Source: an uncultured Gammaproteobacteria bacterium (GTDB lineage: Bacteria > Pseudomonadota > Gammaproteobacteria > JAURND01). Taken from it: DNA of 64,000 nucleotides. The stretch spans positions 56,928-120,927 of the forward strand of contig CAVZRN010000008.1 of NCBI GenBank assembly GCA_963777715.1, read 5' to 3'. Below the pieces are notes generated by a model, which ran no database searches, was not told the origin of the DNA, and saw only the letters and a program-made list of their open reading frames with translations. Positions within the stretch are counted from its first letter, which is position 1. Every line of letters starts with the position of its first letter. Below, one piece after another: positions 4,556 through 31,237 of this stretch. The position numbers and the translations under genes were made by a program.

Positions 4556-4573
4556 CTAAAAAAACATAAAGGA

Positions 4574-4698: not shown

Positions 4699-4711
4699 GT
4701 TTTTTAATCTT

Positions 4712-5571
4712 TTAATCTTTTTTTACCGCCTCCATAATCGCTGTTGCTACTTTTACCGCTTCAACTGTCGCTTTGACATCATGCGCACGAATAATCGTCG
4801 CGCCATGCTTTACCGCCATCACCGCCGCCGCGACACTGCCATATAATCGCTGTTCCACTGGCAAGTTTAGTAGCTCACCAATAAATAACTTTCGTGACAC
4901 CCCAACTAATATCGGTAACCCAAACGTTTTAAAGGCGTGTAAATGCGCTAATAACCGTAAATTCTGCGCGACATTCTTGCCAAAACTACCGCCACCAATA
5001 CCTGGATCGATGATGATATTGTGGCGTAAAATACCTGCTGCTATGCACGCATCGATGCGTGCCTGCAAAAATTGTTTGACCGTCGTGACAATATCTTCTG
5101 CATTATCTTCTGTATCTGGCATACCACCGTCTGGATAGGCCATGTGCATCAGACACACCGGCGTCTGCGCTTGCGCCACAACTTGTAATGCTAATGGATT
5201 GCGTAATGCGCGCACATCATTAATCAATGCTGCCCCGTGTGCGATAGCTTCCTGCATGACCTCTGGCTTACTGGTGTCCACGGAAATTGCCACTGAAGCC
5301 GGAACCGAAATATGTTTTGCTAACGCTTCAACCACCGGAATTACGCGATCCAGTTCCTGTTGCAGTGAGATGACTGGATGTACCCCGGGGTTGGTTGGCT
5401 CCCCCCCACATCAATGATGGTAGCGCCATCAATAACCATCTGCTCGGCATGCGCTAATGCGCTATCAACTTCGGTGTGGCGACCAATGGCGCAATAGGAG
5501 TTTGGGGTGATATTTAAAATCCCCATCACGTGCGGATAGGACAAATCTACGCCCTGCCACTGACTACTCAT
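4712..5571 (-). CDS. folP: Dihydropteroate synthase with an apparent -1 frameshift in a C7/G7 homopolymer at 5401-5407. Adding one G restores a full-length FolP.
   Basis: A 76-aa N-terminal ORF (…IIDVGG) and a 207-aa C-terminal ORF together align colinearly with E. coli FolP. With one extra G the junction reads GGEPTNPG…VIPVVEAL. Confidence 0.85.
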
Positions 5572-5574
5572 CTC

Positions 5575-7473: not shown

Positions 7474-7476
7474 AAT

Positions 7477-8154
7477 CTATAACCTATAATCTATGCCTAC
7501 GAAGTAAACTTCTGGTGAACGTCCACGCGACGCATTCGGCTTACGGATCAGTACCTTCGCAAAGTGCAACCTAAGCACCCGTAAAAATACATCAAATCCC
7601 TGACCTTGAAATACCTTTAGCAAAAAATTACCGCCTGGTCTTAATACTTGCTGGGCAAAATCCCATGCCTGCTCACAAAGCTGCATGGCGCGCGGTTGAT
7701 CAATCGCTGCTATCCCACTTATATTGGGCGATATATCCGACATTACAAGGTCAACTTCAGCCGATGCGGCCGGTAAGCGTTGCCGAATGCGCATTAGCAA
7801 ACTCGCAACCACAGCATCCTCATTAAAATCACCTTGCACAAATTCAACGCCTGGCAAGGGGTCCATCGCCAGCACATCCAGCGCAAACACCTGCCCACTG
7901 TCGCCGATCTTTTGACTGGCTACTTGCGACCACCCACCTGGCGCAGCGCCTAGATCCACCACGTACATACCTGGGCGCAACAGGTGATCTTTCTCATTAA
8001 TTTCCAATAACTTAAAGGCGGCACGTGAACGATAACCCACCTTTTTCGCCTGTTTTACATAATAATCATTGACATGTTCGTTGATCCAACGAGCGCTACT
8101 ATTGGTTCTTTTCACAGGGCAATCCGGGTTGATTCTTGGCAAATAATCTCCCAT
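7477..8154 (-). CDS. rlmE: 23S rRNA Um2552 2'-O-methyltransferase RlmE (FtsJ).
   Basis: Conserved RSRAAFKL…VVDLGAAPGGWSQ motifs. Start placed at an internal Met (MGDYLP). The rlmE-ftsH-folP order is as in E. coli. Confidence 0.9.
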   Translation of the reverse strand: MGDYLPRINPDCPVKRTNSSARWINEHVNDYYVKQAKKVGYRSRAAFKLLEINEKDHLLRPGMYVVDLGAAPGGWSQVASQKIGDSGQVFALDVLAMDPLPGVEFVQGDFNEDAVVASLLMRIRQRLPAASAEVDLVMSDISPNISGIAAIDQPRAMQLCEQAWDFAQQVLRPGGNFLLKVFQGQGFDVFLRVLRLHFAKVLIRKPNASRGRSPEVYFVGIDYRL

Positions 8155-8369
8155 TTTAGAGACAATAACGCGACAATGAAAGGAAATCATGCGTTAAATC
8201 CCCCTACCCCTTTAAAAAAAGGAGGGGAGGTGGATTTAACGGGGATTTCCAGATTCACCTAAAATACTAAATTTCTTTAATTTTAAGGGGTAGACTTAAT
8301 TTTTACATAATAATCCACTGATATACTTTATAATAAGTTAGTTTAATATATTAAAAAGAGCATTTATCC

Positions 8370-9395
8370 ATGAATAACTTAACGCGTAAGGGCAGTATAT
8401 TTGCCCTGACTATCACTGCTGGTGGCGGCATTGCAGCAGGAGTGCTGCTGCTCCTGGGGCTGATTAGCGCCCCCTTCATCGGTTGGCTAGTGTTAGGCGT
8501 GATGGCTGGGCTGGTCTTGTTTTTTACTGGGCTCCTGATCTACGACTATTACAAACACCCCAATACCTCATTACAACCACCGGTTGAGGATGTGAAACTG
8601 TCTGCACCCCCAAAACCTACCCAAGAGACACAAGATCCTATTGAGAGGATCGCCTTAGGTTTAAATATTTTAAACTTGGCGTCAGCTACCTTACAGGGGA
8701 TGGAGGTACTCGAGACAAATACAGCCTTTCAACGACAGCAGGCAGCATCAATTCAGGGCATAGGTATATATGACAAACAAACAGGAGCCGCAGATGCTAT
8801 CGCAGATCAAATTGGACAAACTGACAAGGATCTCAGAGCTTTAGGTGAGATAATTACCCTTAGTTTAACTAAACTGCCTGAAAAATACAGATACAAAACG
8901 CGCGATCCCGCGCGGTGGCTAGCTATAAGGGATACAGCCGCTAGAAATTTGGATAAGGCATTGACACTGGTGAGCAGTAAGATTCTGGAAAAAGTTAAAC
9001 AAGGAAGGAACTTATCACCCACAGAAATCACGCAAATGCTTGCTATAGCTTATGAGCTAAAAGCTGTTATTGCGCATCTCGACAAAGCGATAAAGGTTGG
9101 TGTCTCCCCAAAAACAGCGACAGCGCTAGGAGAACTACGTGCATATTACAAGGCTAAAATTGAGAAGGTTGAAGCATTAACGGATGGATTATCAGCACAA
9201 GCTCCTCATACTCAATCGAAACCTGGTAGCAATGTACTGCCTACAGTACATGAGCAAAGCATATTTGCAATAAAAACATCGCAAACAGCATCAGCTGCTC
9301 AGTCGCCTGGCACATCAACCCCACCACCAATATCAACAACTGAAGACGAAACTGATCCAACCAGTTTGAGCAGTGGTAACTCACATCCAGCTTAG
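8370..9395 (+). CDS. Hypothetical membrane protein. N-terminal bilobed hydrophobic segment (two TM helices, roughly residues 10-60), a helical middle region, and a Ser/Thr/Pro-rich C-terminal tail ending near EDETD.
   Basis: Hydrophobicity pattern read directly from the translation. No recognised catalytic motif. AT-rich upstream region. Confidence 0.5.
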   Translation: MNNLTRKGSIFALTITAGGGIAAGVLLLLGLISAPFIGWLVLGVMAGLVLFFTGLLIYDYYKHPNTSLQPPVEDVKLSAPPKPTQETQDPIERIALGLNILNLASATLQGMEVLETNTAFQRQQAASIQGIGIYDKQTGAADAIADQIGQTDKDLRALGEIITLSLTKLPEKYRYKTRDPARWLAIRDTAARNLDKALTLVSSKILEKVKQGRNLSPTEITQMLAIAYELKAVIAHLDKAIKVGVSPKTATALGELRAYYKAKIEKVEALTDGLSAQAPHTQSKPGSNVLPTVHEQSIFAIKTSQTASAAQSPGTSTPPPISTTEDETDPTSLSSGNSHPA

Positions 9396-9640
9396 TTTTA
9401 TCAACTGTGCCGTAAAACCCCCTTATTTACCTCGAATTCTGATGATCCCATCATCAAAATTCAAGGATAAAGGGAGGTGCAACGGATATAGCAGCCGGTA
9501 AAGCGTTAAAAATCATCTATAATTAATTATACTTAAAGTGTTTAATATTTAGGCTTTATTGCCTATGGCTTGTGCTGAGATTTGCGCTATCTGTTCGAAG
9601 GTGAATTAACTATTGGATGAGGTGGATGAGGAGGTAATAT

Positions 9641-10006
9641 ATGAATAAACGTGATAAAAATAACAAGAATGAATTGAAAAATACTGAGTTGGAGCGACTT
9701 AAACGTGAGCCTATAGTTCCCGACCCTTCGGAAGAGATAGAGCTAGATCCAGATGACCTTACGGCATTAGATCGAAAAACGGAAGAAGCCCACGCTGCCG
9801 CACCAACAGAAGAAGTAAGGCATGACAGTAAAAAATCTGCGCCAGACCAGCAAGTGCCTACGAAATCCTCTAAAAAGAGCAGTAGCAACTCTTATCACCC
9901 GCGAGCACAACACCAAACACCATCACATATTAAACCTATGTCATCACCAGTCCACCCCACAGTGAATAGGCATAGTGGCTTTTCCGGTGGCCGTGGTCAC
10001 AAATAG
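9641..10006 (+). CDS. Hypothetical small protein, highly charged and low-complexity (K/E-rich N-terminus, S/P/H-rich C-terminus), probably disordered.
   Basis: ORF only; composition-based call. May not be expressed. Confidence 0.3.
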   Translation: MNKRDKNNKNELKNTELERLKREPIVPDPSEEIELDPDDLTALDRKTEEAHAAAPTEEVRHDSKKSAPDQQVPTKSSKKSSSNSYHPRAQHQTPSHIKPMSSPVHPTVNRHSGFSGGRGHK

Positions 10007-10111
10007 TAGGTGTTTATGTAGTGTCAGCACAAGCTGGCGCTCACCATCTTGCTAAAATTACTATTCTCAAGCAAGATAGCTATCTATACATATATACAGC
10101 ATCAATAACAC

Positions 10112-10819
10112 ATGGACTTTACTACCTTCTTTAACGGCGCAATTAGTTTACTAACGCTAAGCATCCTTGAGATCGTGCTTGGTGTAGACAATCTAATCTT
10201 TATTTCGATGGTAAGCCGCCGCCTGCCCGCCCATCAGCAAAAAGCAGCGCGGCGCACCGGTTTATTGCTCGCATTGGTTACACGTCTGGCATTGCTGGCA
10301 TCCGTGGTGTGGGTGATGGGGCTACAAAAACCCTTATTCACCCTGCTTACTTACACATTCTCCGCACGCGATCTATTATGTTTATTGGGCGGCTTATTCC
10401 TGTTGTATAAGGGTACAATGGAAATACACGGCGAACTTGAAATCCATGATGAAACAAAACCAATCGGCAAGTTCGCCAGTTTTACCACCATTGTCACGCA
10501 AATCGCCGTCTTTGATATTGTCTTTTCTATCGACAGTATATTAACAGCCATTGGTTTAACGCTAAATTTTTACATTATGGCTACTGCCATCATATTGGCC
10601 ATTATCGTAATGATCGCAGCCAGCGAACCCACCAGTCGGTTTATCCAGAAATATCCCGCCATCCGTATGCTGGCCTGGAGTTTCTTACTATTGATTGGCA
10701 TTGCGTTAGTCGCCGATGGTCTGCATTTCCATATCCCCAGGGGCTATATCTATTTCGCCGTGTGCTTCTCCATCTTTGTCGAGGCTCTCAATTCCTGGCG
10801 ACAGCGTAAGCGTAGATAA
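10112..10819 (+). CDS. TerC-family integral membrane protein (Alx/YgdQ-like).
   Basis: Multi-pass membrane protein with the TerC signature (ILEIVLGVDNLIFIS). Confidence 0.75.
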   Translation: MDFTTFFNGAISLLTLSILEIVLGVDNLIFISMVSRRLPAHQQKAARRTGLLLALVTRLALLASVVWVMGLQKPLFTLLTYTFSARDLLCLLGGLFLLYKGTMEIHGELEIHDETKPIGKFASFTTIVTQIAVFDIVFSIDSILTAIGLTLNFYIMATAIILAIIVMIAASEPTSRFIQKYPAIRMLAWSFLLLIGIALVADGLHFHIPRGYIYFAVCFSIFVEALNSWRQRKRR

Positions 10820-11730
10820 ATTGTTGTACTTCTCGATGCAGATGCGGTGATTCCACGCTAAAAAACGTAATCTCTGGCCACGAACGCATCCAGGTCAATT
10901 GTCGTTTTGCCAGTTGTCGTGTTGCGGTAATCGCCAACTCCTGCATGTCGTGTTGGGTCGTATTTCCCTCTAAATAATCCCAAATTTGTCGATAACCCAC
11001 AGCACGCATCGATGGCATATTTGCGTGTAAATCAAGGCGCTGACGCAGCGCTATCACTTCTTCAATAAATCCCTGTTGCAACATGCATTGAAAACGTTGC
11101 TCAATTTTAGTGGCTAATTTAGCGCGATCCTCTACCATTAAACCAATATTTACAAAGCAATAGGATGAAGCGGTTGTTGGCGTTTGTTGTCCAAACTCTG
11201 TAACCGTCATGCCGGTTAATGTGTGTATTTCAAGTGCGCGCTGGATACGCTGTGCATCATTCGGATTAATACGCGTTGCAGCAACAGGGTCAACAGAATG
11301 CCAGCCGTTGATGCAATGTTTCCCAGCCTGATTGCTCAGCTTCTCGCGTTAGCTGCATCCGCACCGCCATATCCGCCGATGGTAAGGGTGACAACCCTCG
11401 CTGTAAGGCACGAAAATATAACATTGTGCCACCAACCAACAATGGCACGCGACCAGCAGCTAAAATTTGTGCTATTTCAGTTCGCGCATCGACACAGAAA
11501 CGTCCAGCAGAATAAGGCCCTGTCGGATCAGTAATATCAATTAATCGATGCGGAATACGCTGCAATTCGTCTGGTGTCGGCTTGGCGGTGCCGATATCCA
11601 TGCCGCGATATACCATCACCGAATCCACGCTGATAATATCGCAAGGGAATTGCTGGGTGAGCTCCATCGCCAGTTGTGTCTTACCGCTGGCGGTGGGGCC
11701 CATTAGGCATAAGACTAGTGGTTTTGGCAT
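10788..11730 (-). CDS. miaA: tRNA dimethylallyltransferase MiaA, broken by a single-nucleotide indel near 11290-11300.
   Basis: A 146-aa N-terminal ORF (P-loop GPTASGKT) and a 140-aa C-terminal ORF. Translating the gap in the alternate frame gives [28 protein letters not shown], colinear with E. coli MiaA. Confidence 0.85.
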
Positions 11731-19971: not shown

Positions 19972-20212
19972 TTGAAGATGCAAAGTTTGGCGCATAACTC
20001 TCCCGCTGTCATTCCCGCCGCTCATAGTTTATTGAAAGCGTTAAGCAAGATAGCGGGAATCCAAAAATCAAGCTCTTTCAATACTAAAAACCCAGCCTAT
20101 CGCTAAGTTAGGTTTTGGTTCCCCGCCTTCTGTTAGCAGCCTCTTGTTAGCTATGAGCGGCGGTGATGACAAGCCAGGGTTGATAGCCAATCTCGAATGC
20201 GATGGATATGTC
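19972..20212 (+). repeat. MITE-like repeat family B, copy 1 (about 240 bp), with internal inverted repeats (…CATTCCCGCCGCTCA / TGAGCGGCGGTGATG…).
   Basis: Near-identical to 45171-45415. Its 5' half is reverse-complementary to 29037-29150. Confidence 0.75.
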
Positions 20213-20271
20213 CCCATCGCCCCCAGTACAAGTATACCAAATAATTTAACATGACCATTACTAGTAAAGAA

Positions 20272-21003
20272 ATGCCATTTTCCAGCCGACAAAACCCTGC
20301 GTTTGAATTAAAAGGTAGTCTGCTTACATTAACAGTACTACATTTATTTAGTTCTAACATTAATGTATTCATGGCACAATTACGTTCTCACGCGCAGAAA
20401 ACGCCTAATTTGTTTAAGAATATGCCCGTGGTCATTGATCTACAACGCGTGGATAGCGTTGATGACATCGATTTTACACTCCTACAACATCATCTGCGCG
20501 AGTATGGGCTGGTTCCCGTGGGCGTACGCCACGGCAATGAAAAACAAAATACCGCCGCTCAAGCCTCTGGTTTAGCTATTTTAACTAACCAACCTACTAA
20601 GGCAAAACCCAAAGTATCAACCGAGAAAATATCCACCCAGAAAGCAGCTCTACAAACATTCACACACACACAAGTTGTAACAAAGCCCGTGCGTTCTGGT
20701 CAACAAATTTACGCCCGTCAAGGGAATTTGGTGGTGCTAGCGCCAGTAAGCCATGGCGCTGAGCTACTGGCAGATGGACATATCCACGTATATAGCAGCT
20801 TACGTGGTCGCGCACTCGCCGGGATTACCGGTGATAAAACGGCACGTATTTTCTGTCCAAAACTGGAGGCTGAGCTGGTTTCAATTGCGGGTTATTACCT
20901 ATTGAGTGAAAACCTGCCCGTCATTAAGGCGCCAATGGTGCAGGTTTATTTAGAAGACGACAAAATTTGCGCCGAGGGGTTATCGGGACAAGACTCACCC
21001 TGA
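20272..21003 (+). CDS. minC: Septum site-determining protein MinC.
   Basis: N-terminal FELKGSLLTLTVLHL and a C-terminal beta-helical domain colinear with E. coli MinC. No minD or minE follows. Confidence 0.8.
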   Translation: MPFSSRQNPAFELKGSLLTLTVLHLFSSNINVFMAQLRSHAQKTPNLFKNMPVVIDLQRVDSVDDIDFTLLQHHLREYGLVPVGVRHGNEKQNTAAQASGLAILTNQPTKAKPKVSTEKISTQKAALQTFTHTQVVTKPVRSGQQIYARQGNLVVLAPVSHGAELLADGHIHVYSSLRGRALAGITGDKTARIFCPKLEAELVSIAGYYLLSENLPVIKAPMVQVYLEDDKICAEGLSGQDSP

Positions 21004-21584
21004 TATTCCACCGCCTTGCTTAATGCTTGTAGAAACGCGGCAAACTCCCTATCTTCTATGGCTCTTAAGCGTGCCACTGTTAATTCAAAATTGGGCAGTG
21101 TATGCATGATCTTTGCCAAATGAGTGAGATTAGATTGCTGGTCGGGAATAATATCGTCAAACACCTTGGGCTTACCCACCTCCTGCAATACTTCATCAAA
21201 TAATGAGTACACCAAAATACCACGCGTTTCGATGACCACGCTGGTATATACGTAGGCACGCCATGCATCGGCCTGATCTCCCAATTCTAACTGTATGGCA
21301 TGATCAACCATTTGGAAATAGCGATAGGCTTCCAAACCACACAATAACCCACCCAGCACATAATTGTCACACATATTGCCCGCGTATTTCTTAGCAGCGC
21401 ATTTTATAACCAAGGCATGGTGAATTTCTTTAGCGACATGACTCAGCAACTGTTCATTGATCTGTTCCTGCTCCTGACTCTTGATAATCTTCCGAGCGCC
21501 AACGTATTCAAGCATACTGAGTGTGTTTAGAAACCGTCCATAGGTCTCTGACGTTGCCACAATCTTCTTGAGTAAATTTTTCAT
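20946..21584 (-). CDS. Hypothetical helical protein (212 aa) with several E/H-rich helices. No confident family call.
   Basis: ORF only. Its last 58 nt overlap the convergent minC. Confidence 0.3.
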   Translation of the reverse strand: MKNLLKKIVATSETYGRFLNTLSMLEYVGARKIIKSQEQEQINEQLLSHVAKEIHHALVIKCAAKKYAGNMCDNYVLGGLLCGLEAYRYFQMVDHAIQLELGDQADAWRAYVYTSVVIETRGILVYSLFDEVLQEVGKPKVFDDIIPDQQSNLTHLAKIMHTLPNFELTVARLRAIEDREFAAFLQALSKAVEYQGESCPDNPSAQILSSSK

Positions 21585-21660: not shown

Positions 21661-21900
21661 TTATTCAATATCTGCATCAGACAATATCATACCCTGTTGC
21701 ATTAGCAGGGTTAACTTATTTTGTACTCCCACCAAATAAAAATACACTGTTTTTGGGTTCAGCTGCAAATATTCGCTGATCTGTAATAACGTCTTGCTCC
21801 GAATTGCCATCGTTATGCACTGAATCTCACGTTGCGTAAAGTTCATACCAATCTGCGCTTTTAGTGAATTGATTGCTTTTGGTGCAATGAGGTCGGCCAT
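21661..21900 (-). CDS. Small LuxR/GerE-type HTH transcriptional regulator (DNA-binding domain only).
   Basis: FTQREIQCITMAIRSKTLLQISEYLQLNPKTVYFYL matches the LuxR-family HTH. Start placed at the internal Met, which has a GGAG about 9 nt upstream. Confidence 0.6.
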   Translation of the reverse strand: MADLIAPKAINSLKAQIGMNFTQREIQCITMAIRSKTLLQISEYLQLNPKTVYFYLVGVQNKLTLLMQQGMILSDADIE

Positions 21901-22088
21901 AATTATTTGCTCCGTTATGATTGTTTTATTGATATTTTTTGCTAATCCGTCGCCTAAAAAACTAAAATATAGTCCACTTTTTGGTAAAATATACTCCAAT
22001 AAAGATCATTGTCAACGTTTTTGATCTGAAATTGATAATCTCAATAAAAAATGCTAATCTTTAGCACAATTACAGATAGGCCAATCAC

Positions 22089-22793
22089 ATGAACACCAAG
22101 AAAAAATACACTAAAAAAGTTATTGTCATCGATCCCCAATCTTCTGCTGAAGCACGTGCTGATCGTTTACGTCGTGTCCGCAATATGGCGAATTTGACGC
22201 GCGAAGCTATGTGTGATTCCGGAAATCTTAACGTCAATACGTATAAGGGCTGGGAAATCGCGCGTTATGGCGGCTTACCGGTGGACGGTGCGGAACGTGT
22301 GGTAATGCGCGTGGCGCAACAGGGCGTCGTTTGTACGGTTGACTGGTTATTACATGAAATCGGCGTTGGGCCTTATGTGATTCCTGATTATCAAGAAGCG
22401 CAACGTGACAAAGAACATGCGACCAACAATGTGCAGCTTGATAACGAAACACAGTTGGTGATCAATGAATTATTACTGTTCAGAAAACAATTTCCCTTTA
22501 CCACCAGTTATGAAATAGCTGACGACGGCATGAGTCCCTGGTACCAGCCAGGCGACTTCGTCGCCGGTGTTAAATACCACGGCGATCGCATGAAAGAAGC
22601 CATTGGTCGGCCATGTATTGTGCAAACACATGATGGTCAATTGATGGTGCGAACCATTAAGAGCGGAGAAAAAGCCGGGACCCACATGTTAACGTGCACC
22701 AACCTGGACACTTCGGTGAAAAAACCCGTATTATATGATGTCGTGCTAGCCAGCGCCGCGCCCATTATCCGCCACTATCGAAAAATCTCATAA
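22089..22793 (+). CDS. LexA/CI-like regulator: N-terminal XRE-type HTH plus a C-terminal S24-peptidase-like domain that may be degenerate.
   Basis: HTH (LRRVRNMANLTREAMC) and a C-terminal DGMSP…GDFVAG…K region resembling the S24 fold. Immediately upstream of pfs, with 4 nt between them. Confidence 0.55.
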   Translation: MNTKKKYTKKVIVIDPQSSAEARADRLRRVRNMANLTREAMCDSGNLNVNTYKGWEIARYGGLPVDGAERVVMRVAQQGVVCTVDWLLHEIGVGPYVIPDYQEAQRDKEHATNNVQLDNETQLVINELLLFRKQFPFTTSYEIADDGMSPWYQPGDFVAGVKYHGDRMKEAIGRPCIVQTHDGQLMVRTIKSGEKAGTHMLTCTNLDTSVKKPVLYDVVLASAAPIIRHYRKIS

Positions 22794-22797
22794 TACT

Positions 22798-23559
22798 GTG
22801 CCGTCATTAACTCCCAATATCGTTCTCATTGGCGCCATGCAAGAGGAAATAGCAACTCTGCGTGCAGCCATTGCTAATTGTCAACATCGTAAAATAGGCC
22901 CCGTAGATTTTTACAGTGGACATATTTTTGATCACTCCGTGGTGCTGGTATGTTCGGGTATCGGCAAGGTTAACGCGGCCATTGCCTCCACCCTGGCGAT
23001 TGAGCATTTTAACCCTATCTGCATTATCAATATTGGGGCATTGGGCGCACTGGAAGCGCATTTAGAACCGGGCGGCATTATTTTATCCGCATCCGTAGCC
23101 TATCATGACGTCGATGCAACCACATGGGGTTACCAACACGGACAAGTTCCACGTATGCCAGTAGATTATCAAGCATCACACGCCTTGCTATATTTATTTG
23201 AAGGATTGGCAGGAAAATTAGCCTTAACCTTTTACAAGGGCGTGGGCGTCACTGGCGATCAATTTCTCGCCAGCGATACCTTGCTTACTACACTGAAACT
23301 CAAATTCCCAACTGCCATTGGCGTCGATATGGAAGCAGCCAGCATTGCGCAGGTTGCGCATCTATTTAATATACCCTTTGTCAGTGTCCGTGCTGTTAGC
23401 GATCACGCCAACGATAGCGCAATAATGCATTCTAATGCTAACTTATCGAAGGCAGCCGATAATATTGCCAAGTTGATCTTATCAGCTATCCCCCAGGTAG
23501 CTATCTCCCTACAGATGGAAGGGGAGAACGCTGCTTTAAATAATGCTGAAAACTCATAA
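22798..23559 (+). CDS. mtnN: 5'-methylthioadenosine / S-adenosylhomocysteine nucleosidase (Pfs/MtnN).
   Basis: Colinear with E. coli Pfs (IGAMQEE…, SGIGKVNAA, VDMEAASIAQV). Confidence 0.9.
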   Translation: MPSLTPNIVLIGAMQEEIATLRAAIANCQHRKIGPVDFYSGHIFDHSVVLVCSGIGKVNAAIASTLAIEHFNPICIINIGALGALEAHLEPGGIILSASVAYHDVDATTWGYQHGQVPRMPVDYQASHALLYLFEGLAGKLALTFYKGVGVTGDQFLASDTLLTTLKLKFPTAIGVDMEAASIAQVAHLFNIPFVSVRAVSDHANDSAIMHSNANLSKAADNIAKLILSAIPQVAISLQMEGENAALNNAENS

Positions 23560-24508
23560 TCTTCTGATCACTTAAGCTAAACTGTTCGTGCTTAATCACA
23601 CTGCAGTAGTATAATTTTCCTCGACGTTCAAATGATTGCATGATCGGGAATAAAAAGTGACCCCAATCTGACACGTGTCGTTTTTTCTCCACCTCTGAAA
23701 ACAAGAACAACAAATGCGTGCGTGCAATTAATTTATTTAATGCACTGCTGCTCGCCCTATGCACAGTCCCAGTATCTAATTCTTGCGCAAATTCCTCTTC
23801 GGTTCTAATAACCAACCAATATGGCTTGCCCTGCTTATCTAATCCCAAACAGCTACCAAGGGAATCTAGTTGATAATACTCCACAATACGATAATCACTT
23901 ATAAAATCATTCAGTAATCTAGCGTAGTCATCCGTTGCCTGGTAGTCATTTAGATGGCTGCCCATCAATGACAACGAAATATCGGAGAAATATTTAAACT
24001 GCATACGTAAGATAATTTTATTCAGTTCATCCAATATATGATTGCTATCCTTAACAATAAATGCGTCAATGATACCTTCATTAAGCGCATTCACTGGCGC
24101 ATCAGATTCAAGTTTATCCATCAACATGATTTTCTTGATCGGCAAATCGACTATCTTCCTACAAAATTCAACGCCATTCATATGCGGCATAATAGAATCT
24201 ACTAATACCGCGGAAATTTTTGCAAAACGATTCTGATTAAACGCTAATTGGGGCAAGCGTCGATAATCCATGGTTTTTGCCACAAAATCTAGATCAACCT
24301 CACTAGGCGCAATAGGCGCCACCAGGCATGATTGCATCATAGACAGATCGGTAGCTGTGTGTAAAATATCTAATGCCATTGCCAAGTTTTGATAGCATAA
24401 AGTCGGCTGCAATCTCTGGAAATGGGTAGTGAAGTTCTTGGAAAAAGTCCGATCATCACTCACCATCATTAGTGTAGTCGGCCAATAAAACAAGGGGGAT
24501 GTTTTCAT
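23501..24508 (-). CDS. Orphan atypical response regulator. Receiver-like domain with the putative phospho-acceptor Asp at about position 104 (AVLVDSIMPHMNGVEF) and an uncharacterised C-terminal domain of about 200 aa. LqsR-like architecture.
   Basis: REC motifs: Asp at ~104 in the β3-α3 consensus (LVDSIMPHMNG) and Lys in DAFIVKD. No kinase gene adjacent. Its 3' end overlaps the convergent pfs. Confidence 0.5.
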   Translation of the reverse strand: MKTSPLFYWPTTLMMVSDDRTFSKNFTTHFQRLQPTLCYQNLAMALDILHTATDLSMMQSCLVAPIAPSEVDLDFVAKTMDYRRLPQLAFNQNRFAKISAVLVDSIMPHMNGVEFCRKIVDLPIKKIMLMDKLESDAPVNALNEGIIDAFIVKDSNHILDELNKIILRMQFKYFSDISLSLMGSHLNDYQATDDYARLLNDFISDYRIVEYYQLDSLGSCLGLDKQGKPYWLVIRTEEEFAQELDTGTVHRASSSALNKLIARTHLLFLFSEVEKKRHVSDWGHFLFPIMQSFERRGKLYYCSVIKHEQFSLSDQKIMSFQHYLKQRSPLPSVGR

Positions 24509-24791
24509 GATAGGCTCTCTTTAGTTAAAATTTGCGCTTATTCTACATAAAAAGAATTGTAAATCAAGTAAATAATTTTAATTTGATTCTAATTGGGGAT
24601 TTGCAGCTTGCCCACCACTGACGTTAACTAATGCACATTTACACCATCTTCCTCTTGTATCGTGATCTGCAAGCAGTATCTTTTTACCACCTTCATATTG
24701 CAAGTTTTTTAGCGGAATTGATTGCTGTATTGAATACTCATACTCATAGCATATCTCCTTATTGAGTTAGTGGTGGGCTTAGGAAATCGTA

Positions 24792-25007
24792 TTAGTCTTT
24801 TTTAAGCTTACCTACCCTCCACTTTTGTTCATTAGTTAATTGCTTTTCAGCTTGTATGCGTTGGTAAATTTCGTGGCGATGCACTGGCACTTCTGTTGGG
24901 GCGTCGATGCCAAGACGAACTTGGTTTCTTTTAACGCCAAGAACGGTAAGCGTAATCTCGCCACCAATTATAATTTTTTCGCCTGGTTTTCTGGTTAGAA
25001 TTAACAT
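24792..25007 (-). CDS. csrA: Carbon storage regulator CsrA family protein (71 aa), probably a paralog given its context.
   Basis: [52 protein letters not shown] is nearly identical in pattern to E. coli CsrA. Confidence 0.9.
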
Positions 25008-25325
25008 TCTTTATCTCCTCCTAAATAGTTGATAAATATAGTGTTTTTACAACTTTTAGTTGATTAGGTTTTAAAGACAAATTTCTAATAAAATTCTTTT
25101 TGCGTAGTTTATTACCCCCCTTTTTATAAAATTTAATCCACCGCCTATTTTTTTGTTACGATGGAGCATTGAATCGGGTACAATTTTATAGGCGCTGCTT
25201 TTTGCCACGATGGTTTCGGTAGCTTCTATTTTACTATTATGCATCATTGCATAATATATTGCAACATAGAATATAGCAGGGGAAAGGATTCTCTTGACCC
25301 CAACCTGTCTTATCAGGGAAATGTA

Positions 25326-26018
25326 ATGAATAAAACCAATACTTTGGCTAAGAATCTTAAGTCACTAATGCAGTTTAGGCATATTACTGAGTCTGATCTT
25401 GCGCGTGTAACTTGTGTTAGCCAACCTGTTATCAACAGGCTAGCAAAGGGGATCACCACCAATCCCAATGTTGATACGCTTCGACCAATTGCAAAATTCT
25501 TTAACGTTAGCATTGGTCAGCTAGTAGGTGATGAACGGTTATTCTTACCAGAGAATCTTATTTCCAGCGATGAGCCTATACTTGCCTCAAGCCTAATTGA
25601 AGTTCCCATTATTACTTGGGAAAGAGCTGCACAATGGCAGAATATTCCTGCGAAACAACAGATAGAGAAGTTTAAAAAGTTTATTCGCCTCGATGCTAAT
25701 TTGTCAGACTATGCCTATGCCTTACTCATTGAGGACAGCACAATGGAACCTACTTTCATGAAGGGAACATGTATCGTTATTGAACCAGAACTTGAGCCGG
25801 TTGATCGTGATTATGTGGTTGTTGTTTTAAAGGGGCAAAAAAAACCTATATTTAAACAAATACTTTTTAGCGGAGAAGAAGCCTTTTTAAAGTCACTTAA
25901 TCCAGACTTTGATACGCTTCAGACAACTAAAAATTGCAAGATAATAGGTGTTGCTGTGCAAGGACACATTAATTTAAAAGAAACCAGGAGTAATGAATAT
26001 GGAGTTAATGCACCGTAG
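25326..26018 (+). CDS. LexA/CI-like repressor: XRE HTH plus an S24 peptidase domain (Ser in DSTMEPT, Lys in FKQIL).
   Basis: Classic HTH (LAKNLKSLMQFRHITESDLARVTCVSQPVINRLAKG) and S24 motifs. Start at MNKTN, with an AGGGA Shine-Dalgarno about 8 nt upstream. Confidence 0.8.
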   Translation: MNKTNTLAKNLKSLMQFRHITESDLARVTCVSQPVINRLAKGITTNPNVDTLRPIAKFFNVSIGQLVGDERLFLPENLISSDEPILASSLIEVPIITWERAAQWQNIPAKQQIEKFKKFIRLDANLSDYAYALLIEDSTMEPTFMKGTCIVIEPELEPVDRDYVVVVLKGQKKPIFKQILFSGEEAFLKSLNPDFDTLQTTKNCKIIGVAVQGHINLKETRSNEYGVNAP

Positions 26019-26694
26019 TAGACAACAGTATAAATATTTTTACTTGCTTGCAATGATCTATACAACCATCATGGTCGCAGCAACGACCGTGGCATATAAG
26101 GTGGTACAAATAGGCCCATTTATAGCAACGAGCGCCTCTGTTGTTTTTCCTGTCACATTTACGTTAGGTGGAATTATATCTGAAGTGTATGGTTATGAAA
26201 TTTCAAAAAAATTGGTCTTTTCGTCTATATTTTGCGGGCTTTTATTTGCTGTTATTGTAAATAGTTGTATTTATTTGCCATCACCCCCGAATTGGCAAGG
26301 GCAAGCTGCCTTTACCACAACCTTGGGACACACGCTGCGTTTTGCAGTTTCTGGAACCATAGGAAGTTTAGTAGGAAGCTATATAAATATCTTTTCTGTC
26401 ACGCGCTGGAAGGCTTTAATGAAGGGAAAATATTTTCCTTTGCGCAGCTTTGGAGCATCCACCATTGGAGAATTTTGTCTGGTATTGATAACTACCTTGC
26501 TATCTTTTTTGGGTACTTTACCTACTAACATGGTGTTTAAAATGTTTCTGTTTGCTTATGTTTCAAAAATTTTATACTCGTTATTGTTACTTTGGCCGGC
26601 GGCCATCGTGGCGATAATGCTTAAAAAATCAGAAGGAATCGACATATTTGATAATGAAGGAAAAATAATTACACAAGAATATGACTATTCATGA
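25993..26694 (+). CDS. yhhQ: Queuosine-precursor (preQ0/preQ1) transporter, YhhQ/DUF165 family.
   Basis: FPVTFTLGGIISEVYGYE and its topology are colinear with E. coli YhhQ. Confidence 0.8.
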   Translation: MNMELMHRSRQQYKYFYLLAMIYTTIMVAATTVAYKVVQIGPFIATSASVVFPVTFTLGGIISEVYGYEISKKLVFSSIFCGLLFAVIVNSCIYLPSPPNWQGQAAFTTTLGHTLRFAVSGTIGSLVGSYINIFSVTRWKALMKGKYFPLRSFGASTIGEFCLVLITTLLSFLGTLPTNMVFKMFLFAYVSKILYSLLLLWPAAIVAIMLKKSEGIDIFDNEGKIITQEYDYS

Positions 26695-27212
26695 AGATAT
26701 TAATATTGGGAAATGGTGGTTCGGGTAAATCCTATCTGGCAAAACGACTAGCTGCTCTATTAACTTGCGAACCAATACATCTTGACAACCTATACTGGAA
26801 TCCTGGTAGTTGGATACACAATTCTAAGGATCAATGGGATACTGCCTTACTACAGTATTTACAAAAAGAAACTTGGGTAATGGAAGGCACGCCGATGCGT
26901 GACCTTTCTGTTAGAATAGCTCACGCCGATTTAATTGTTTTATTAGATACCGCCAGATATATTTGTATTTTAAGAGTTATCCGAAAGGGTATTGCAAATA
27001 TAATTAGGAAAAATAAACCCTATAATGATGGATGTCCTATTCGTGGACTAAGTCTACGAGCAATAAAGTGGGTATGGAATTACCCTTACAAAACAAGACC
27101 CATCATTCTATCTCAATTGGCTGCTGCTCAATCTAGCAAAAATGTGCTTTACCTAAAGAACAAACAAGAATCCGCGCTATTAATTAAAAATTTTTCTGTT
27201 TATTTATCTTAA
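26691..27212 (+). CDS. FlaR-like 'DNA topology modulation' protein, an adenylate-kinase-like P-loop kinase.
   Basis: GNGGSGKSYLAKRL P-loop, HLDNLYWNPGSW, and …WVWNYPYKTRP match the FlaR/topology-modulation family almost position for position. Confidence 0.8.
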   Translation: MKILILGNGGSGKSYLAKRLAALLTCEPIHLDNLYWNPGSWIHNSKDQWDTALLQYLQKETWVMEGTPMRDLSVRIAHADLIVLLDTARYICILRVIRKGIANIIRKNKPYNDGCPIRGLSLRAIKWVWNYPYKTRPIILSQLAAAQSSKNVLYLKNKQESALLIKNFSVYLS

Positions 27213-27726
27213 TCAGCTTTAACATATCCATCAATTTTCTTTCCTTGCGCACCTGATTTTCCGCAAAAGCCTTACCTATTTTAAATGCATCTTCTTGACT
27301 AAATTCTGTTATAAGCTTCATATTTTTGGCGAGATCATCTACTGTAGCTCGAAATTTCTTGGAAGTCCCTTTTTCACCATACACTATCACGTAGCTGTCT
27401 AGATTCCCCCTAAAATCTTGTAAGAGGAGCTTATATTTCGGTGCACATTTAACGGAAACAGCCAAGGTGGCTATAATCTTAACGTCTGCAGGTGAAAACC
27501 CATTTACTAATTGATCATCTTCGTAAATTTCAAGTGGAGTTAAAGGAACATTTGTATTTGTACCTACAATTTTAACAACAAGGCGATCCTCTGCTATATT
27601 TTTTCCTTTTTGCCAGCCAATGAGTTGGTAATTAAATTTTCTAGTTTCTTTTGCTTCTGCAAGTATTTTTCCAAAATTCTCTAAAATCCAGCTGACATAT
27701 TGGGTTAAGTTATTCTTGTTGGCCAT
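27184..27726 (-). CDS. Hypothetical protein (180 aa) with no recognisable motif.
   Basis: ORF only. Convergent with the flaR-like gene, with a short overlap. Confidence 0.3.
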   Translation of the reverse strand: MANKNNLTQYVSWILENFGKILAEAKETRKFNYQLIGWQKGKNIAEDRLVVKIVGTNTNVPLTPLEIYEDDQLVNGFSPADVKIIATLAVSVKCAPKYKLLLQDFRGNLDSYVIVYGEKGTSKKFRATVDDLAKNMKLITEFSQEDAFKIGKAFAENQVRKERKLMDMLKLIKINKQKNF

Positions 27727-28133
27727 ACTTAAGCTCTCCCTTATTCAAATATTCGTACCTTAAAGTGCAATGAGTATACCCACTTGGGTGACATTCTAAT
27801 TAACGTCAGTTACAGCTAAGCTTGTTTAGCCTGGATCACTAATAGCTTGCTCATCCCGGAGACAAATTTATGGTTTAACCTTGTGAATAGTTTCCCAAAG
27901 AGATTTATACTCTCGAGTTATCTTATGCAGTAAAGCCAACAGAAAATTTTCCCGCAGGGTAGTGGTGCCCACAGAACTTTTCATGCGTTAATCCTCCTCT
28001 CAAATAATTAAAGGGAGATTAAATTTTCTTGTACACCTTGTCAATATATGTTTATATATTAAAATAACCTAAGATTTATATTAAAATAGCATTTATCGCC
28101 AATTTATTTTTATAGATGAAAATTAAATGAAAA

Positions 28134-29036
28134 TTGCTAATTTTTACCGATTCCGTACTGGAAGGTAAACATCAAGATGATAGCATAATGAAAAGCTGGG
28201 ACTCTGAATATTACGATAAAAATTCCATTATGCAGTTTCGCACTGCAATGGAGATGCTTAAACAACTACACCTCAATGGCAACGAAGCTATTTTAGATAT
28301 TGGCTGTGGCAGTGGGAAAATTACTGCGGAACTTGCTAAAAAAACACGGCAACACGTTACTGGTTTAGACTTATCACCAGGCATGGTGCAATTTGCAAAT
28401 AAACATTATAAGGCGGAGAACCTATCGTTTGTCGTGGGTGATGTCACCAAAATGCGATTTAAACAGCAATTTGACGTGGCTGCATCCTTCTGGACTTTAT
28501 CTTGGGTAGAAAATCAACATTTAGCGTTACAAAATATTCTAAATAGTCTTAAAGACGGCGGCAAAATTTTTCTTATGTATCCTATGCGCCATGATGTATA
28601 CGACGTTGTAGACCAAGTCATTCTAAGACCGGCATGGTCAAGTTATTTCCACCATTTCAAACCAAGACCATTTGTTACTGAAGAGACATACCGTAGAACT
28701 TTGCAAGCATTGAATATCCCCTATTCCTGCAATAAAAAACAGCTTGTTTGTAAATTCAGTGATTATGGAGAAATGGAGAATTCAATTCGTAGTTGGATGC
28801 CCCATTTAGATAGAATTCCTGACACAAGAAAAAAATCATTGTTTCTAGCGGATGTTATTGAAGAATATCTTTTATCACGTGATAGTTCAGATTTCTCTAT
28901 GTATTTTAACGTACTAGAAATCACCGGAGTAAAAATTTCCTTGGAAAAAGAACTTGACGATAAGTCATCGCTGGTTATTGAGGATAATAAAGATAGGCCA
29001 TTTCACAAGATAGCGGGGAACCAAAACCCAACTTAA
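28134..29036 (+). CDS. Class I SAM-dependent methyltransferase (trans-aconitate methyltransferase Tam-like).
   Basis: SAM motif I (LDIGCGSGKIT), post-I acidic residue (GLDLS) and motif II. The start may be the internal MKSWD. Confidence 0.7.
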   Translation: MLIFTDSVLEGKHQDDSIMKSWDSEYYDKNSIMQFRTAMEMLKQLHLNGNEAILDIGCGSGKITAELAKKTRQHVTGLDLSPGMVQFANKHYKAENLSFVVGDVTKMRFKQQFDVAASFWTLSWVENQHLALQNILNSLKDGGKIFLMYPMRHDVYDVVDQVILRPAWSSYFHHFKPRPFVTEETYRRTLQALNIPYSCNKKQLVCKFSDYGEMENSIRSWMPHLDRIPDTRKKSLFLADVIEEYLLSRDSSDFSMYFNVLEITGVKISLEKELDDKSSLVIEDNKDRPFHKIAGNQNPT

Positions 29037-29150
29037 CAACAGGCTGGGTTTTTAGTGTCAATAAGCTTGATTTTTGGGTTCCCGCTGTCTTGCTTAATGC
29101 CTCTAAAAAACTAAGAGCGGCGGGAATGACAACGGGAGAGTATGTGCCAT
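29037..29150 (-). repeat. Partial copy (5' half) of MITE-like family B, in reverse orientation.
   Basis: Reverse complement matches the first ~110 nt of the 19972 and 45171 copies. Confidence 0.7.
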
Positions 29151-29330: not shown

Positions 29331-29810
29331 TTATTTCGGATATTCTAAATTTTTTTTAGTGGCGCGGCACAACGTTTCAAGATACCTCGCCGCTTCAAGG
29401 CGTGCCATGGGTAGGTTATGATCTAAGTAGTTACCACACTCTATCGGCGAGCAACCAGGCACTTTTCCTTTGAAATCTGCAATGTGTTCAAACAGCTCTA
29501 TAACAGCAGGTAATAGCTCCCTACTTTTATGAAACCCATTGATGACCCAATAAAATCCAGTGCGACACCCCATAGGGCCAAAATAAATCGTGCGCTTGCC
29601 CCACACGCGATGAAAGCGCAAAAAACTAGCGCCTATATGTTCAATCGTATGCACCTCCGCCATGTTTATCACTGGCTCTCGATTGGGAGCCTTCATACGT
29701 AGATCATACGTCGTCACTGGATGACCTGCCACCTCGTCAATGCGTGACACATATACACCTGGCAACAACTTTTCGTGATCGATACAAAAGCTAGCAATTT
29801 TTTTTTGCAT
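29331..29810 (-). CDS. luxS: S-ribosylhomocysteine lyase LuxS.
   Basis: HTIEH, PMGCRTGFY and ECGNY motifs, colinear with E. coli LuxS. Start at MQKKIASF. Confidence 0.9.
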   Translation of the reverse strand: MQKKIASFCIDHEKLLPGVYVSRIDEVAGHPVTTYDLRMKAPNREPVINMAEVHTIEHIGASFLRFHRVWGKRTIYFGPMGCRTGFYWVINGFHKSRELLPAVIELFEHIADFKGKVPGCSPIECGNYLDHNLPMARLEAARYLETLCRATKKNLEYPK

Positions 29811-29812
29811 AA

Positions 29813-31237
29813 TTAAGCACTGTTTTTTAATCGTGCACCATGTTCGGCCAAAACATGCGCCACACACCCCGTCACTCGCTTACCCGCATCTATGTGCAAA
29901 AATTCATTCGGCCCATGCGCATTGGAATGTGGCCCAAGCACACCGGTTATCATGAATTGCGCGTCAGGAAATTTTGCACCTAGCATGTGCATAAAGGGAA
30001 TAGAGCCGCCTTCGCCGAAATATATGGCAGGTTTGCCAAAGTATGCTTGTGATGCAGTGGTCATGGCGTCCGCCAACCACGGTTGCAATTCCGGCGCATT
30101 CCAACCAGAAGCCAGGCTCCTTGGCGTCAACGTTACCTTCGCTTGATAGGGCGGAGAATCCTCTAAAATTTTCTTCAACGCCGCCATTCCTTTTTCTGGA
30201 TCGCACATAGGAGGAACACGCATCGATAACAACAGGGATGTTTTAGGGCGCAATACATTGCCTGCATCCGCCAGCTTTGGAATATCATCCGCACCAGTAA
30301 TAGCTAGCGCCGGTTTCCAAGTACGATTGATAATCATCTGATCATAGGGAACATTTGCCGGTTTTACGCCACTAACCCAAGGATATTCTAACCATACAAC
30401 ATCACCCATCACTTCCGCGGCGTGTTTTGCCTCCTTAATACGACCCGATGGAATATCAACGTGCAATTCTTTAACTAACACTTCACCCGTGGTTTCATTT
30501 TCAATACGACTTAATAATTCACGCATAATACGCAAACTGCAAGGGACAACGCCGCTGCTGGCGCCAGAATGCACGCCCTCGGTTAACACTTCTACTGTCA
30601 ATGTCGCATTAATCAATCCCCGCAACGACGTCGTGCACCACAATTGCTCATAATTTCCTGAACCAGAATCCAGGCAAATAACTAATTCTGGACTACCAAT
30701 TTGTGGCTTTAAATGTTCGACATAGGCTGGCAAATCGTTACTACCGCTTTCTTCACTGGCTTCAATTAAGATGACACAACGCGCATGGGAAATGCGTTGT
30801 TGTTTTAATGCCTTAATGGCAGTCAGTGCTGCAAACACCGCATAACCATCATCAGCGCCGCCACGCCCATACAGGCGTCCGTCTTTTAACACTGGCTTCC
30901 ATGGATCTAACCCCTCATGCCAACCGACCATTTCCGGCTGCTTATCCATATGCCCATATAAAACCACTGTCTTAGCAGTATTATCTCCAGGCACCTCAAT
31001 TAACAATAAGGGAGTGCGCCCTGGCAGGCGATGAACGGTTAGTTGGATATCCGGCAGATTTTGCGCATAACACCAATTAGTTATTAGTTCCATGGCTTGA
31101 TCGATGTAACCGTTCTTTCGCCAGTCTGGATCATATGCAGGAGATTTACATGGTATTTCAATGTACTTACTAATAGTTGGGATAATGGTTTGATCCCAGG
31201 TTTGATTGATGAACTGCTGAGCTTGCTGAGAATTCAT
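29813..31237 (-). CDS. M20-family metallopeptidase (dipeptidase-like, 474 aa).
   Basis: M20 metal-binding motifs (HMDKQP, GRGGADDG, EASEESGS). Confidence 0.75.
   Translation of the reverse strand: MNSQQAQQFINQTWDQTIIPTISKYIEIPCKSPAYDPDWRKNGYIDQAMELITNWCYAQNLPDIQLTVHRLPGRTPLLLIEVPGDNTAKTVVLYGHMDKQPEMVGWHEGLDPWKPVLKDGRLYGRGGADDGYAVFAALTAIKALKQQRISHARCVILIEASEESGSNDLPAYVEHLKPQIGSPELVICLDSGSGNYEQLWCTTSLRGLINATLTVEVLTEGVHSGASSGVVPCSLRIMRELLSRIENETTGEVLVKELHVDIPSGRIKEAKHAAEVMGDVVWLEYPWVSGVKPANVPYDQMIINRTWKPALAITGADDIPKLADAGNVLRPKTSLLLSMRVPPMCDPEKGMAALKKILEDSPPYQAKVTLTPRSLASGWNAPELQPWLADAMTTASQAYFGKPAIYFGEGGSIPFMHMLGAKFPDAQFMITGVLGPHSNAHGPNEFLHIDAGKRVTGCVAHVLAEHGARLKNSA

Follow-up and report, generated by a model that had tools for sequence, protein, structure and literature searches.

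A probable lvr-type regulatory region, in two adjoining pieces and without transfer genes, in the chromosome of an uncultured Legionellales-like bacterium

In a 64-kb stretch of contig CAVZRN010000008.1 from an uncultured Legionellales-like bacterium (64,000 nt, called the window below), genes for a GerE/LuxR-type regulator, two proteins resembling LexA and the lambda repressor CI, a CsrA-family protein and an LqsR-type response regulator lie close together, interleaved with pfs and with a transporter operon. Two questions raised by this locus are: (i) whether the genes share a history and, if so, in what kind of element; and (ii) whether they are still likely to operate as a signalling circuit. 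An earlier note on this DNA had called the locus a remnant or a re-used regulatory module, and every open reading frame (ORF) that it listed exists where it was placed. We consider it probable that the locus consists of two adjoining pieces of the lvr-type region that heads conjugative plasmids and integrative conjugative elements (ICEs) of Legionellales, here located in a chromosome and without transfer genes in their vicinity. All of the components belong to known families, and the locus represents a known regulatory region in a form that lacks transfer genes, reused or decaying, rather than a new category.

All statements on what is absent from the window apply to the visible 64 kb. The ORF translations of the window were read by eye for lqsA-like, lqsS-like, type IV secretion system (T4SS), tra, vir, integrase and kinase genes. 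In agreement with the earlier note, lqsA, lqsS, T4SS and integrase genes were not recognised among them, and no tra or vir ORFs were recognised either. By the same reading, the window resembles an ordinary Legionellales-like chromosome, with ispG, eno, ftsH, htpG, ileS, lysS and a gene for a long coiled-coil protein.

A plasmid-type segment beside a conserved gene set

The right-hand piece of the locus, from about 24.68 to 29.09 kb (piece B), has the following features.

24677-24740: left edge of a strain-variable, low-GC segment, marked by a cluster of differences from a second assembly (L001) and by a drop in GC content
24792-25007, minus strand: csrA, 71 amino acids (aa); Pfam CsrA E 6e-26, 90.7 bits against 27; NCBIfam PRK01712 97.8 bits against 73
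25008-25325: putative divergent control region, 318 bp, between the starts of csrA and the 230-aa repressor gene
25326-26018, plus strand: LvrR-like repressor, 230 aa, with an XRE-type helix-turn-helix (HTH) and an S24 fold; Pfam HTH_3 and Peptidase_S24, E 1e-15
25993-26694, plus strand: transporter of the VUT/YhhQ family; TIGR00697 73.9 bits against a cut-off of 50.95
26691-27212, plus strand: FlaR-like P-loop (adenylate-kinase-type) protein; NCBIfam PRK08118 133.8 bits, below the cut-off of 215
27184-27726, minus strand: 180-aa protein with no Pfam, PADLOC or PHROG family, lying within the interval of the earlier note and unnamed there
28134-29036, plus strand: class I S-adenosylmethionine-dependent methyltransferase, the last low-GC gene; Pfam Methyltransf_11 E 2e-22
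29003-29095: dispersed, palindromic repeat at the right-hand end of this low-GC segment; fold z-score -4.8

This segment stands out by its composition (GC content 0.33-0.39 over 24500-29000, against about 0.45 outside, and 0.44 again at 29000) and by a strain difference at its left edge. In a gapped alignment of the window with L001, which is an assembly of this organism obtained from a different sample, 26 of the 27 differing positions fall within 24677-24900, a tract of 224 nt that comprises the 3' part of csrA and the adjoining spacer, and a single difference falls in the other 4.5 kb; the L001 contig ends at the variable tract. This tract is a sharp boundary of recombination or strain variation. 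In the relative L006, genes for an M20 peptidase, a 108-aa protein and an LqsR-like protein are contiguous and without an insert; in the window, luxS and the entire low-GC segment lie between the M20 and LqsR-like genes. The earlier note had confined the locus to 21661-27726. Its genes stand and its extent does not, because the low-GC segment continues to the methyltransferase gene. A 17-nt inverted repeat is found at both low-GC edges, although with two matches observed against 0.4 expected per window it is weakly above chance.

Gene for gene, piece B corresponds to a segment of the L. (Legionella) pneumophila F-type plasmid NZ_CP015948.1, except for the window's additional FlaR-like gene. 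The plasmid carries csrA (54.5% identity), the divergent XRE/S24 repressor (27.6%), the VUT transporter (28%), the 180-aa protein in the same place and on the same strand, opposite to VUT (27%, pairwise E 2e-8), and a methyltransferase in the same position (31.6% over 263 aa). Three genes lie there between csrA and the repressor, the order running from csrA to a 'Vir protein' and then to the repressor, with tra genes beyond; the window has none of these. Another L. pneumophila plasmid and plasmids of Piscirickettsia salmonis likewise have a similar group of repressor, VUT and methyltransferase genes beside their tra genes, and the repressor, VUT, 180-aa and methyltransferase genes appear as a cargo conserved on Legionella and Piscirickettsia plasmids. 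The window's repressor shares 28-31% identity with L. pneumophila plasmid repressors; for its transporter, the VUT genes that adjoin LvrR-like repressors on plasmids of Legionella and Piscirickettsia give 28-30%. Its 180-aa protein matches an ORF adjoining yhhQ in L. nautarum (37.5% over 64 aa, E 5e-6). The FlaR-like gene has no counterpart in the plasmid cassettes L031, L032 and L033 and is peculiar to the window's version.

The known system closest to this arrangement is lvrRABC, the regulatory module of Legionella T4SS islands, in which lvrR is divergent from a csrA-containing module that heads the tra operon (PMC3864950). The window resembles it in that a LexA/CI-like HTH repressor is divergent from a csrA-family gene, and it resembles NZ_CP015948.1 in the flanking VUT, 180-aa and class I methyltransferase genes; the likeness of the csrA-repressor pair to the Legionella lvr cassette, which the earlier note had drawn, is supported by homologs that stand in the same relative arrangement on that plasmid. 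The window differs from lvrRABC in having no lvrA or lvrB homologs and no recognised tra or T4SS genes, in its additional FlaR-like gene, in its host, which is an uncultured Legionellales-like bacterium and not Legionella, and in a csrA that is 55-60% identical to the plasmid copies. From these comparisons, it is well supported that piece B represents a remnant or a re-used ICE-type regulatory module, including the transporter, the 180-aa protein and the methyltransferase. With regulatory synteny of the plasmid type and with no transfer genes in the window, the earlier description of a remnant or re-used module therefore fits.

For csrA, context and sequence point in different directions. The gene lies outside the alaS-csrA context, as had been noticed before, with no alaS adjoining; it has a low GC content, falls within the strain-variable tract, is divergent from the LvrR-like repressor and stands directly upstream of the LqsR-like gene on the same strand. 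Comparison with plasmid copies of the lvrC type, which the earlier note had proposed, was made and did not place the gene among them: it is 55-60% identical to those copies, against 71-79% to canonical CsrAs (71-73% to enterobacterial CsrA, and 79% to the CsrA of another metagenome in a recA-recX-alaS-csrA context). Its best non-self match among 5.8 billion proteins is 73%, and the relatives of neighbouring genes reach 52-72%; such a value would be surprising in a housekeeping gene, which evolves slowly, although sparse sampling could explain it. The gene behind this best match was found in the sample that also yielded L001; it is preceded by a GerE gene and lies on a contig with a GC content of 0.40, and because that value differs from the window's the match is not assignable to the window's genome. 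Taken together, it is rather likely that csrA is an accessory paralog, with its context in favour and its sequence against.

The repeat at the right edge of piece B is one of three copies of a dispersed palindromic repeat of about 90-100 nt in the 64 kb (20040-20135, 29003-29095 and 45240-45335), with the core CAAGATAGCGGGRAAYCC...GGTTCCCCGCTRTCTTG and fold z-scores of -4.8 and -6.6. Two of the copies bracket the stretch from minC to the methyltransferase gene, and one overlaps the last codons of the latter. The repeat looks like an element of the repetitive extragenic palindromic or miniature inverted-repeat transposable type.

To the left of the boundary lies piece A, from about 21.66 to 24.68 kb, which has the GC content of the backbone.

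21661-21900, minus strand: GerE/LuxR-type HTH-only regulator, 79 aa; Pfam GerE E 6e-7; divergent from the 234-aa gene
21901-22088: putative divergent control region, 188 bp, AT-rich (GC 0.28), between the GerE and 234-aa genes
22089-22793, plus strand: 234-aa protein with an XRE-type HTH and a LexA/CI-like C-terminal domain, from its predicted structure; no Pfam family
22798-23559, plus strand: pfs, 5'-methylthioadenosine/S-adenosylhomocysteine nucleosidase; NCBIfam PRK05584 206 bits against a cut-off of 169
23501-24508, minus strand: LqsR-family response regulator, 335 aa; full-length match to PDB 6sy9 and a weak Response_reg match

Homologs of the 234-aa protein adjoin LqsR-like genes, usually in convergent orientation, in the loci L002 and L007 (60-62% identity), L036 (72%), L037 (58%), L041 (49%), L009 (37%) and L011 (32%), in L. 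clemsonensis (31%), and on the plasmids pLELO and pLlyPCM2298_2 (33-34% identity). A gene with a GerE domain accompanies the pair in L002, L007, L004, L037 and L041, and L036 has a probable partial GerE gene that is 55% identical and without a Pfam record. The order in L036, the closest relative, is that of the window (LqsR-like, pfs, 234 aa, GerE). All four regulators are clustered in L041, where GerE and CsrA genes are divergent from the 234-aa gene, which in turn converges on a run of genes for the LqsR-like protein, a 261-aa protein, a HAMP kinase and a methyltransferase. By its gene content, piece A is a gene set conserved in related uncultured Legionellales.

The pfs gene begins 4 nt past the stop codon of the 234-aa gene, the gap that the earlier note had given, with a GTG start that is required by the conserved N-terminal strand IVLIGAM, and the two genes are probably co-transcribed. 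Since L036 has the same gene order, the 234-aa/pfs operon is conserved at least there. We also note that luxS (29331-29867, minus strand; Pfam E 7e-54) lies 5.8 kb from pfs, and that the regulators are flanked by pfs and luxS, both enzymes of the activated methyl cycle and autoinducer 2 (AI-2) route. L. pneumophila is not known to use AI-2.

What ties piece A to conjugative elements is the plasmid pLELO. There, tra genes, traT, csrA and three small genes are followed by a divergent homolog of the 234-aa protein, then by genes for a hydrolase, a binding protein, a HAMP kinase and a 75-aa protein, on which the LqsR-like gene converges. Judged by gene order, the 234-aa family occupies the position of lvrR on pLELO, and the window's 234-aa protein is in this respect a further likeness to lvrRABC. 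Other settings of the family are of a different kind. In L. spiritensis (L038), the 234-aa and LqsR-like genes are about 9 kb apart, at opposite ends of a putative signal-biosynthesis operon. Within L038 1-10669, the 234-aa gene is divergent from this operon, which has an AfsA-like (butyrolactone-synthase-type) gene first and the LqsR-like regulator last; within L039 (L. nautarum) 1-10693, its divergent neighbour is an operon that encodes an ATP-grasp enzyme together with a C39-peptidase ABC exporter. These neighbourhoods suggest that the 234-aa family regulates operons for signalling molecules or peptides besides plasmid transfer genes.

The CI-like proteins and the LqsR-type regulator

The 234-aa family has more than 130 homologs, annotated as hypothetical or XRE-type, and the named sources are Legionella, Tatlockia and unclassified Gammaproteobacteria; to date, the family is known from hardly any group besides the Legionellales. 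An AlphaFold model of the window's protein (40 homologs; pLDDT, a predicted confidence score, 88.6) matches in Foldseek a lambda-repressor-type HTH at the N-terminus and the C-terminal domains of LexA and lambda CI at the C-terminus, with probability 1.0. Profile-profile alignment of the 234-aa family with the 230-aa repressor family is weak (probability 39%) and agrees with the fold result. In this weak alignment, Gly147 stands at the position of the nucleophile and Arg188 at that of the general base; of 40 family members, 36 have Gly or Ala at position 147, and Arg188 is invariant. By model and alignment, the protein is LexA/CI-like without a Ser/Lys dyad, and the doubt that the earlier note had raised about the dyad of this first CI-like protein was justified.

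The 230-aa repressor was described in the same note as a canonical S24 protein, which is too strong, because Thr139 replaces the nucleophilic Ser. Aligned with lambda CI, it has Thr139 at Ser149, Lys177 at Lys192 and Ala101-Ala102 at the Ala111-Gly112 cleavage site. Among eight aligned relatives from Legionella and Piscirickettsia plasmids and uncultured genomes, the Lys position is Arg in seven and the nucleophile position varies, so that the family as a whole is not built for Ser/Lys autocleavage. The window's 230-aa protein might still cleave itself, a property that its family does not share. Both proteins share with lambda CI, LexA and UmuD an HTH and a beta-rich C-terminal domain (by Pfam for the 230-aa protein, by Foldseek for the 234-aa protein), and both differ from them in the dyad, with Gly147/Arg188 in one and Thr139/Lys177 plus an Ala-Ala site in the other. 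As neither has a Ser/Lys dyad, autocleavage of the SOS type is doubtful for the CI-like proteins, and the notion of autocleaving repressors at this locus is weakened.

Downstream of the 230-aa repressor, the gene overlaps of 26 nt (repressor/yhhQ) and 4 nt (yhhQ/flaR-like) support a repressor-yhhQ-flaR operon. The transporter is a member of the YhhQ family, as had been proposed, although it scores 21.5 bits against a cut-off of 252 with the E. coli-type model PRK11212. Of the FlaR-like kinase, the likeness to a P-loop kinase fold holds, whereas membership in the FlaR family does not, its score falling below the family cut-off.

The 335-aa protein matches PDB chain 6sy9_A over its full length (phmmer; E 8.6e-28, query residues 5-326 against chain residues 27-352), at about 25% identity. 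The entry bears just the name 'Response regulator'; we take it for LqsR of L. pneumophila, an unconfirmed assignment made because chain residue 128, with which Asp104 of the 335-aa protein aligns, corresponds to residue 108 plus a 20-residue tag. The acceptor Asp of LqsR is D108 (PMC3376566). On this footing, the LqsR-like nature of the protein and its phospho-acceptor Asp near position 104, both put forward in the earlier note, are borne out. A profile of ten homologs retrieves 1251 cluster representatives of the family at E<=1e-30, all full length; LqsR/PhcX homologs have been found in 310 proteobacterial genomes, and the output domain of the family has a GGDEF-like fold for which cyclase activity was not detected (PMC10653808). 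Among 29 loci with LqsR-type homologs, 23 have an ORF of the histidine-kinase family, usually directly upstream, and four have a class I/II aminotransferase of the LqsA/CqsA type. In a neighbour-joining (NJ) tree of 34 homologs, which is without support values, the 335-aa protein groups with homologs from uncultured genomes, beside a plasmid-type clade and away from 6sy9; it is probably not an ortholog of L. pneumophila LqsR. A second, more distant clade of lqsR homologs, some of them on pLELO-type plasmids, has been reported in a paper that makes no mention of lvr genes (PMC8023197).

Alignment of the 335-aa protein with 157 family representatives (n=158) gives the following census of receiver residues.

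Position 17: Asp in 156 of 158; Ser in the 335-aa protein, the sole case
Position 18: Asp in 156 of 158; Asp in the 335-aa protein
Position 104: Asp in 158 of 158; Asp in the 335-aa protein
Position 130: Thr in 157 of 158; Met in the 335-aa protein, the sole case
Position 153: Lys in 158 of 158; Lys in the 335-aa protein

The protein is also the sole member with Ser105, where the family has mostly Tyr, or with Asp131, where it has mostly Gly (n=158). By this alignment, the receiver appears to have lost one metal-binding Asp and the switch Thr. Receiver identity to L037 is 46.5% for the 335-aa protein against 65.1% for its sister L036, whereas identity in the output domain is 36.8% against 39.3%, an equal divergence. 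The simplest reading is that control by phosphorylation has been lost or relaxed while the output domain would still be under constraint.

The gene neighbourhood has changed likewise. The closest relatives have, directly upstream of the LqsR-type gene, a gene for a 92-108-aa protein with a histidine-kinase H-box (HELRTAL), and in most of them a kinase gene lies further upstream, beyond the small protein. The window has a counterpart of neither: no LqsA-like aminotransferase or sensor kinase ORF was recognised among its translations, tblastn with the kinases of related loci gave zero matches in it, and a search of it for remnants of the kinase gene, of the small H-box gene and of lvrA/lvrB gave nothing. 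The label of 'orphan' regulator, given in the earlier note, is correct within the 64 kb, where neither a kinase nor an LqsA-type aminotransferase is present. Given the degenerate receiver with Ser17 and Met130, an ordinary phosphorelay of the Lqs type through the 335-aa protein is doubtful.

As an observation on the small proteins themselves, those of L002 (9693-9986), L006 (9609-9935), L007 (5191-5469) and L010 (9657-9938) are all encoded directly upstream of LqsR-like genes and all cluster with kinases by BLAST, and the H-box (F/I-x-H-E/D-L-K/R-T) was seen in the two that were read, L002 and L006. They could be stand-alone phosphotransfer or phosphatase modules.

Set beside known regulators, the 335-aa protein resembles LqsR (6sy9, by the assignment above) and PhcX (PMC10653808) in length, two-domain architecture, acceptor Asp and Lys153, and it resembles PhcX in that its gene is apart from any lqsA or lqsS genes. 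It differs from LqsR in its clade, in Ser17, Met130 and the lack of an adjoining kinase, and in the linkage of its gene to those for the pseudo-S24 HTH protein, GerE and CsrA. The second lqsR clade (pLELO, pLAI01-117; PMC8023197) is its sister in the NJ tree and likewise has the 234-aa family as a neighbour; the plasmid copies, however, keep the receiver residues and an operon with a HAMP histidine kinase, whereas the copy in the window is chromosomal, kinase-less and degenerate.

Alternative readings and a possible circuit

Several points weigh against the derivation of the locus from an lvr-type region. The loci behind the co-occurrence counts are few and were not drawn at random, and the tree that places the 335-aa protein beside the plasmid clade is a crude NJ tree. 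The three pLELO genes between the repressor-slot gene and csrA, used as a test for lvrA and lvrB, gave zero tblastn matches in the window. As csrA is closer to canonical copies than to plasmid lvrC copies, it could be a housekeeping gene that the insert abuts. Nothing callable as an operator was found in either divergent region, 21901-22088 having short direct repeats with no inverted repeat and 25008-25325 having weak palindromes and repeats only. Finally, a T4SS, a kinase or lqsA/lqsS genes could lie outside the 64 kb, in which case the locus might be part of a unit working in trans.

This last point leads to the reading that the locus is a branch of a working Lqs-type quorum-sensing system, with an LqsS/LqsT-like kinase and LqsA, the alpha-hydroxyketone enzyme, encoded elsewhere and with control by CsrA as in L. 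pneumophila. Homology to the LqsR family is full-length, Asp104 and Lys153 are kept, csrA is directly upstream on the same strand, pfs and luxS are nearby, and there are precedents for orphan kinases (LqsT; PMC8023197) and for orphaned regulators (PhcX; PMC10653808). We nevertheless regard this reading as unlikely, in view of the position of the 335-aa protein outside the canonical LqsR clade of the crude NJ tree, of the absence of Asp17 and Thr130 in this protein alone of 158, and of a receiver whose evolution outpaces that of the output domain. The 64 kb were found to encode neither a kinase nor an H-box protein nor an aminotransferase, and no GGA motif is visible at the ribosome-binding site of the LqsR-like gene. 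A quite unlikely reading concerns the 230-aa repressor operon, in which the earlier note had seen a hint of damage- or stress-induced 7-deazaguanine salvage: RecA-stimulated self-cleavage of the repressor, in an SOS or stress response, would de-repress a preQ0/preQ1 transporter and a kinase. It draws on the Peptidase_S24 match (E 1e-15), on the alignment of Lys177 with Lys192 of lambda CI, on the transporter's score above the TIGR00697 cut-off and on the overlap of the repressor, yhhQ and flaR-like genes, which are probably on one transcript. The idea of such a switch is weakened by the want of a Ser/Lys dyad in both S24-like proteins; Thr139 stands at the nucleophile position of the repressor and Ala-Ala, not Ala-Gly, at its cleavage position, and Arg takes the Lys position in seven of eight family members. 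In addition, the orientation of VUT relative to the repressor varies between loci, the cassette has no tgt, queA or other queuosine gene, and the substrates of the VUT family are not predictable from sequence. That the neighbourhood is one of chance, made up of unrelated regulators and the housekeeping genes pfs and csrA with no common history or function, is very unlikely. Pfs and luxS are indeed ordinary metabolic genes, the csrA sequence is like canonical copies and no common operator or repeat links the genes; however, the same regulators occur together in more than 10 independent loci and on plasmids, in several arrangements, and piece B corresponds to a plasmid segment gene for gene.

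Returning to the derivation from an lvr-type region, which we prefer, we infer a possible regulatory wiring from gene neighbourhoods; directly observed are the identities of the genes, their synteny with regulatory regions of plasmids, the states of the residues, and the breaks in composition and between strains. The 230-aa repressor would bind the 318-bp divergent region and so control both its own yhhQ-flaR operon and csrA, from which read-through into the downstream LqsR-like gene is possible. CsrA would add post-transcriptional control, acting on mRNAs. Rfam searches (gathering and E-value thresholds) of the window gave no RsmY/Z-like or other regulatory RNA, only spurious miRNA matches, and GGA counts in the intergenic regions are low (<=6 GGA per region and strand). 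The 234-aa protein would act as a stable, non-cleavable DNA-binding regulator, expressed with pfs and facing the GerE gene across 188 bp; a promoter-like TTGACA-16-TATATT (11 of 12 matches) lies there on the minus strand at 22015-21988, although the promoter and terminator scan gave results near the level of shuffled sequence. The LqsR-type protein, which has no DNA-binding domain, may act via its conserved GGDEF-like output domain, probably without normal phosphorylation, because the kinase and H-box genes are gone and the receiver has lost its Asp and Thr. More speculatively, it could act on the 234-aa repressor.

If this last step is carried further, one arrives at a circuit of Legionellales that would comprise an LqsR-type regulator, a non-cleavable protein in the lvrR slot, CsrA and GerE, and in which a two-component or quorum signal would replace RecA-stimulated autocleavage. 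The LqsR-type regulator would then be an anti-repressor acting on a dead S24 domain and gating conjugation or signalling-molecule operons, and the window would hold a domesticated, kinase-independent version. We put this forward as a conjecture with a small chance of being right. That the second LqsR clade is found paired time and again with the 234-aa family does, however, make this family a candidate downstream partner for LqsR-type output, and the pairing suggests, from gene neighbourhoods only, a link between two-component signalling and the control of conjugative elements. The window offers a natural variant with no kinase and a degenerate receiver that can be compared with the intact versions on plasmids. 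The most useful lead is the conserved set of LqsR-type regulator, pseudo-S24 repressor, CsrA and GerE.

Further features of the window

Searches of the window with PADLOC and PHROGs returned just generic HTH, repressor and methyltransferase matches and no signature of a defence system. To the left of piece A, minC (20251-21003, plus strand) stands alone, with no minD or minE adjoining, and has a convergent overlap with a 212-aa ORF (20946-21584, minus strand); the latter has no Pfam, PADLOC or PHROG family, and an identical protein is encoded in the second assembly of the same organism. Two genes appear by eye to be split: miaA (10788-11730, minus strand), into parts of 146 and 140 aa, where a frameshift or an assembly error is possible, and likewise suhB, near 59163-59959. 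Further mobile or accessory features, read by eye from the translations, were a HigA-like antitoxin (44385-44762), a 1329-aa coiled-coil, effector-like protein (45475-49464), an IS4-type transposase (49954-50982) and an AbiEi-like gene with a partner fragment (57340-59011).

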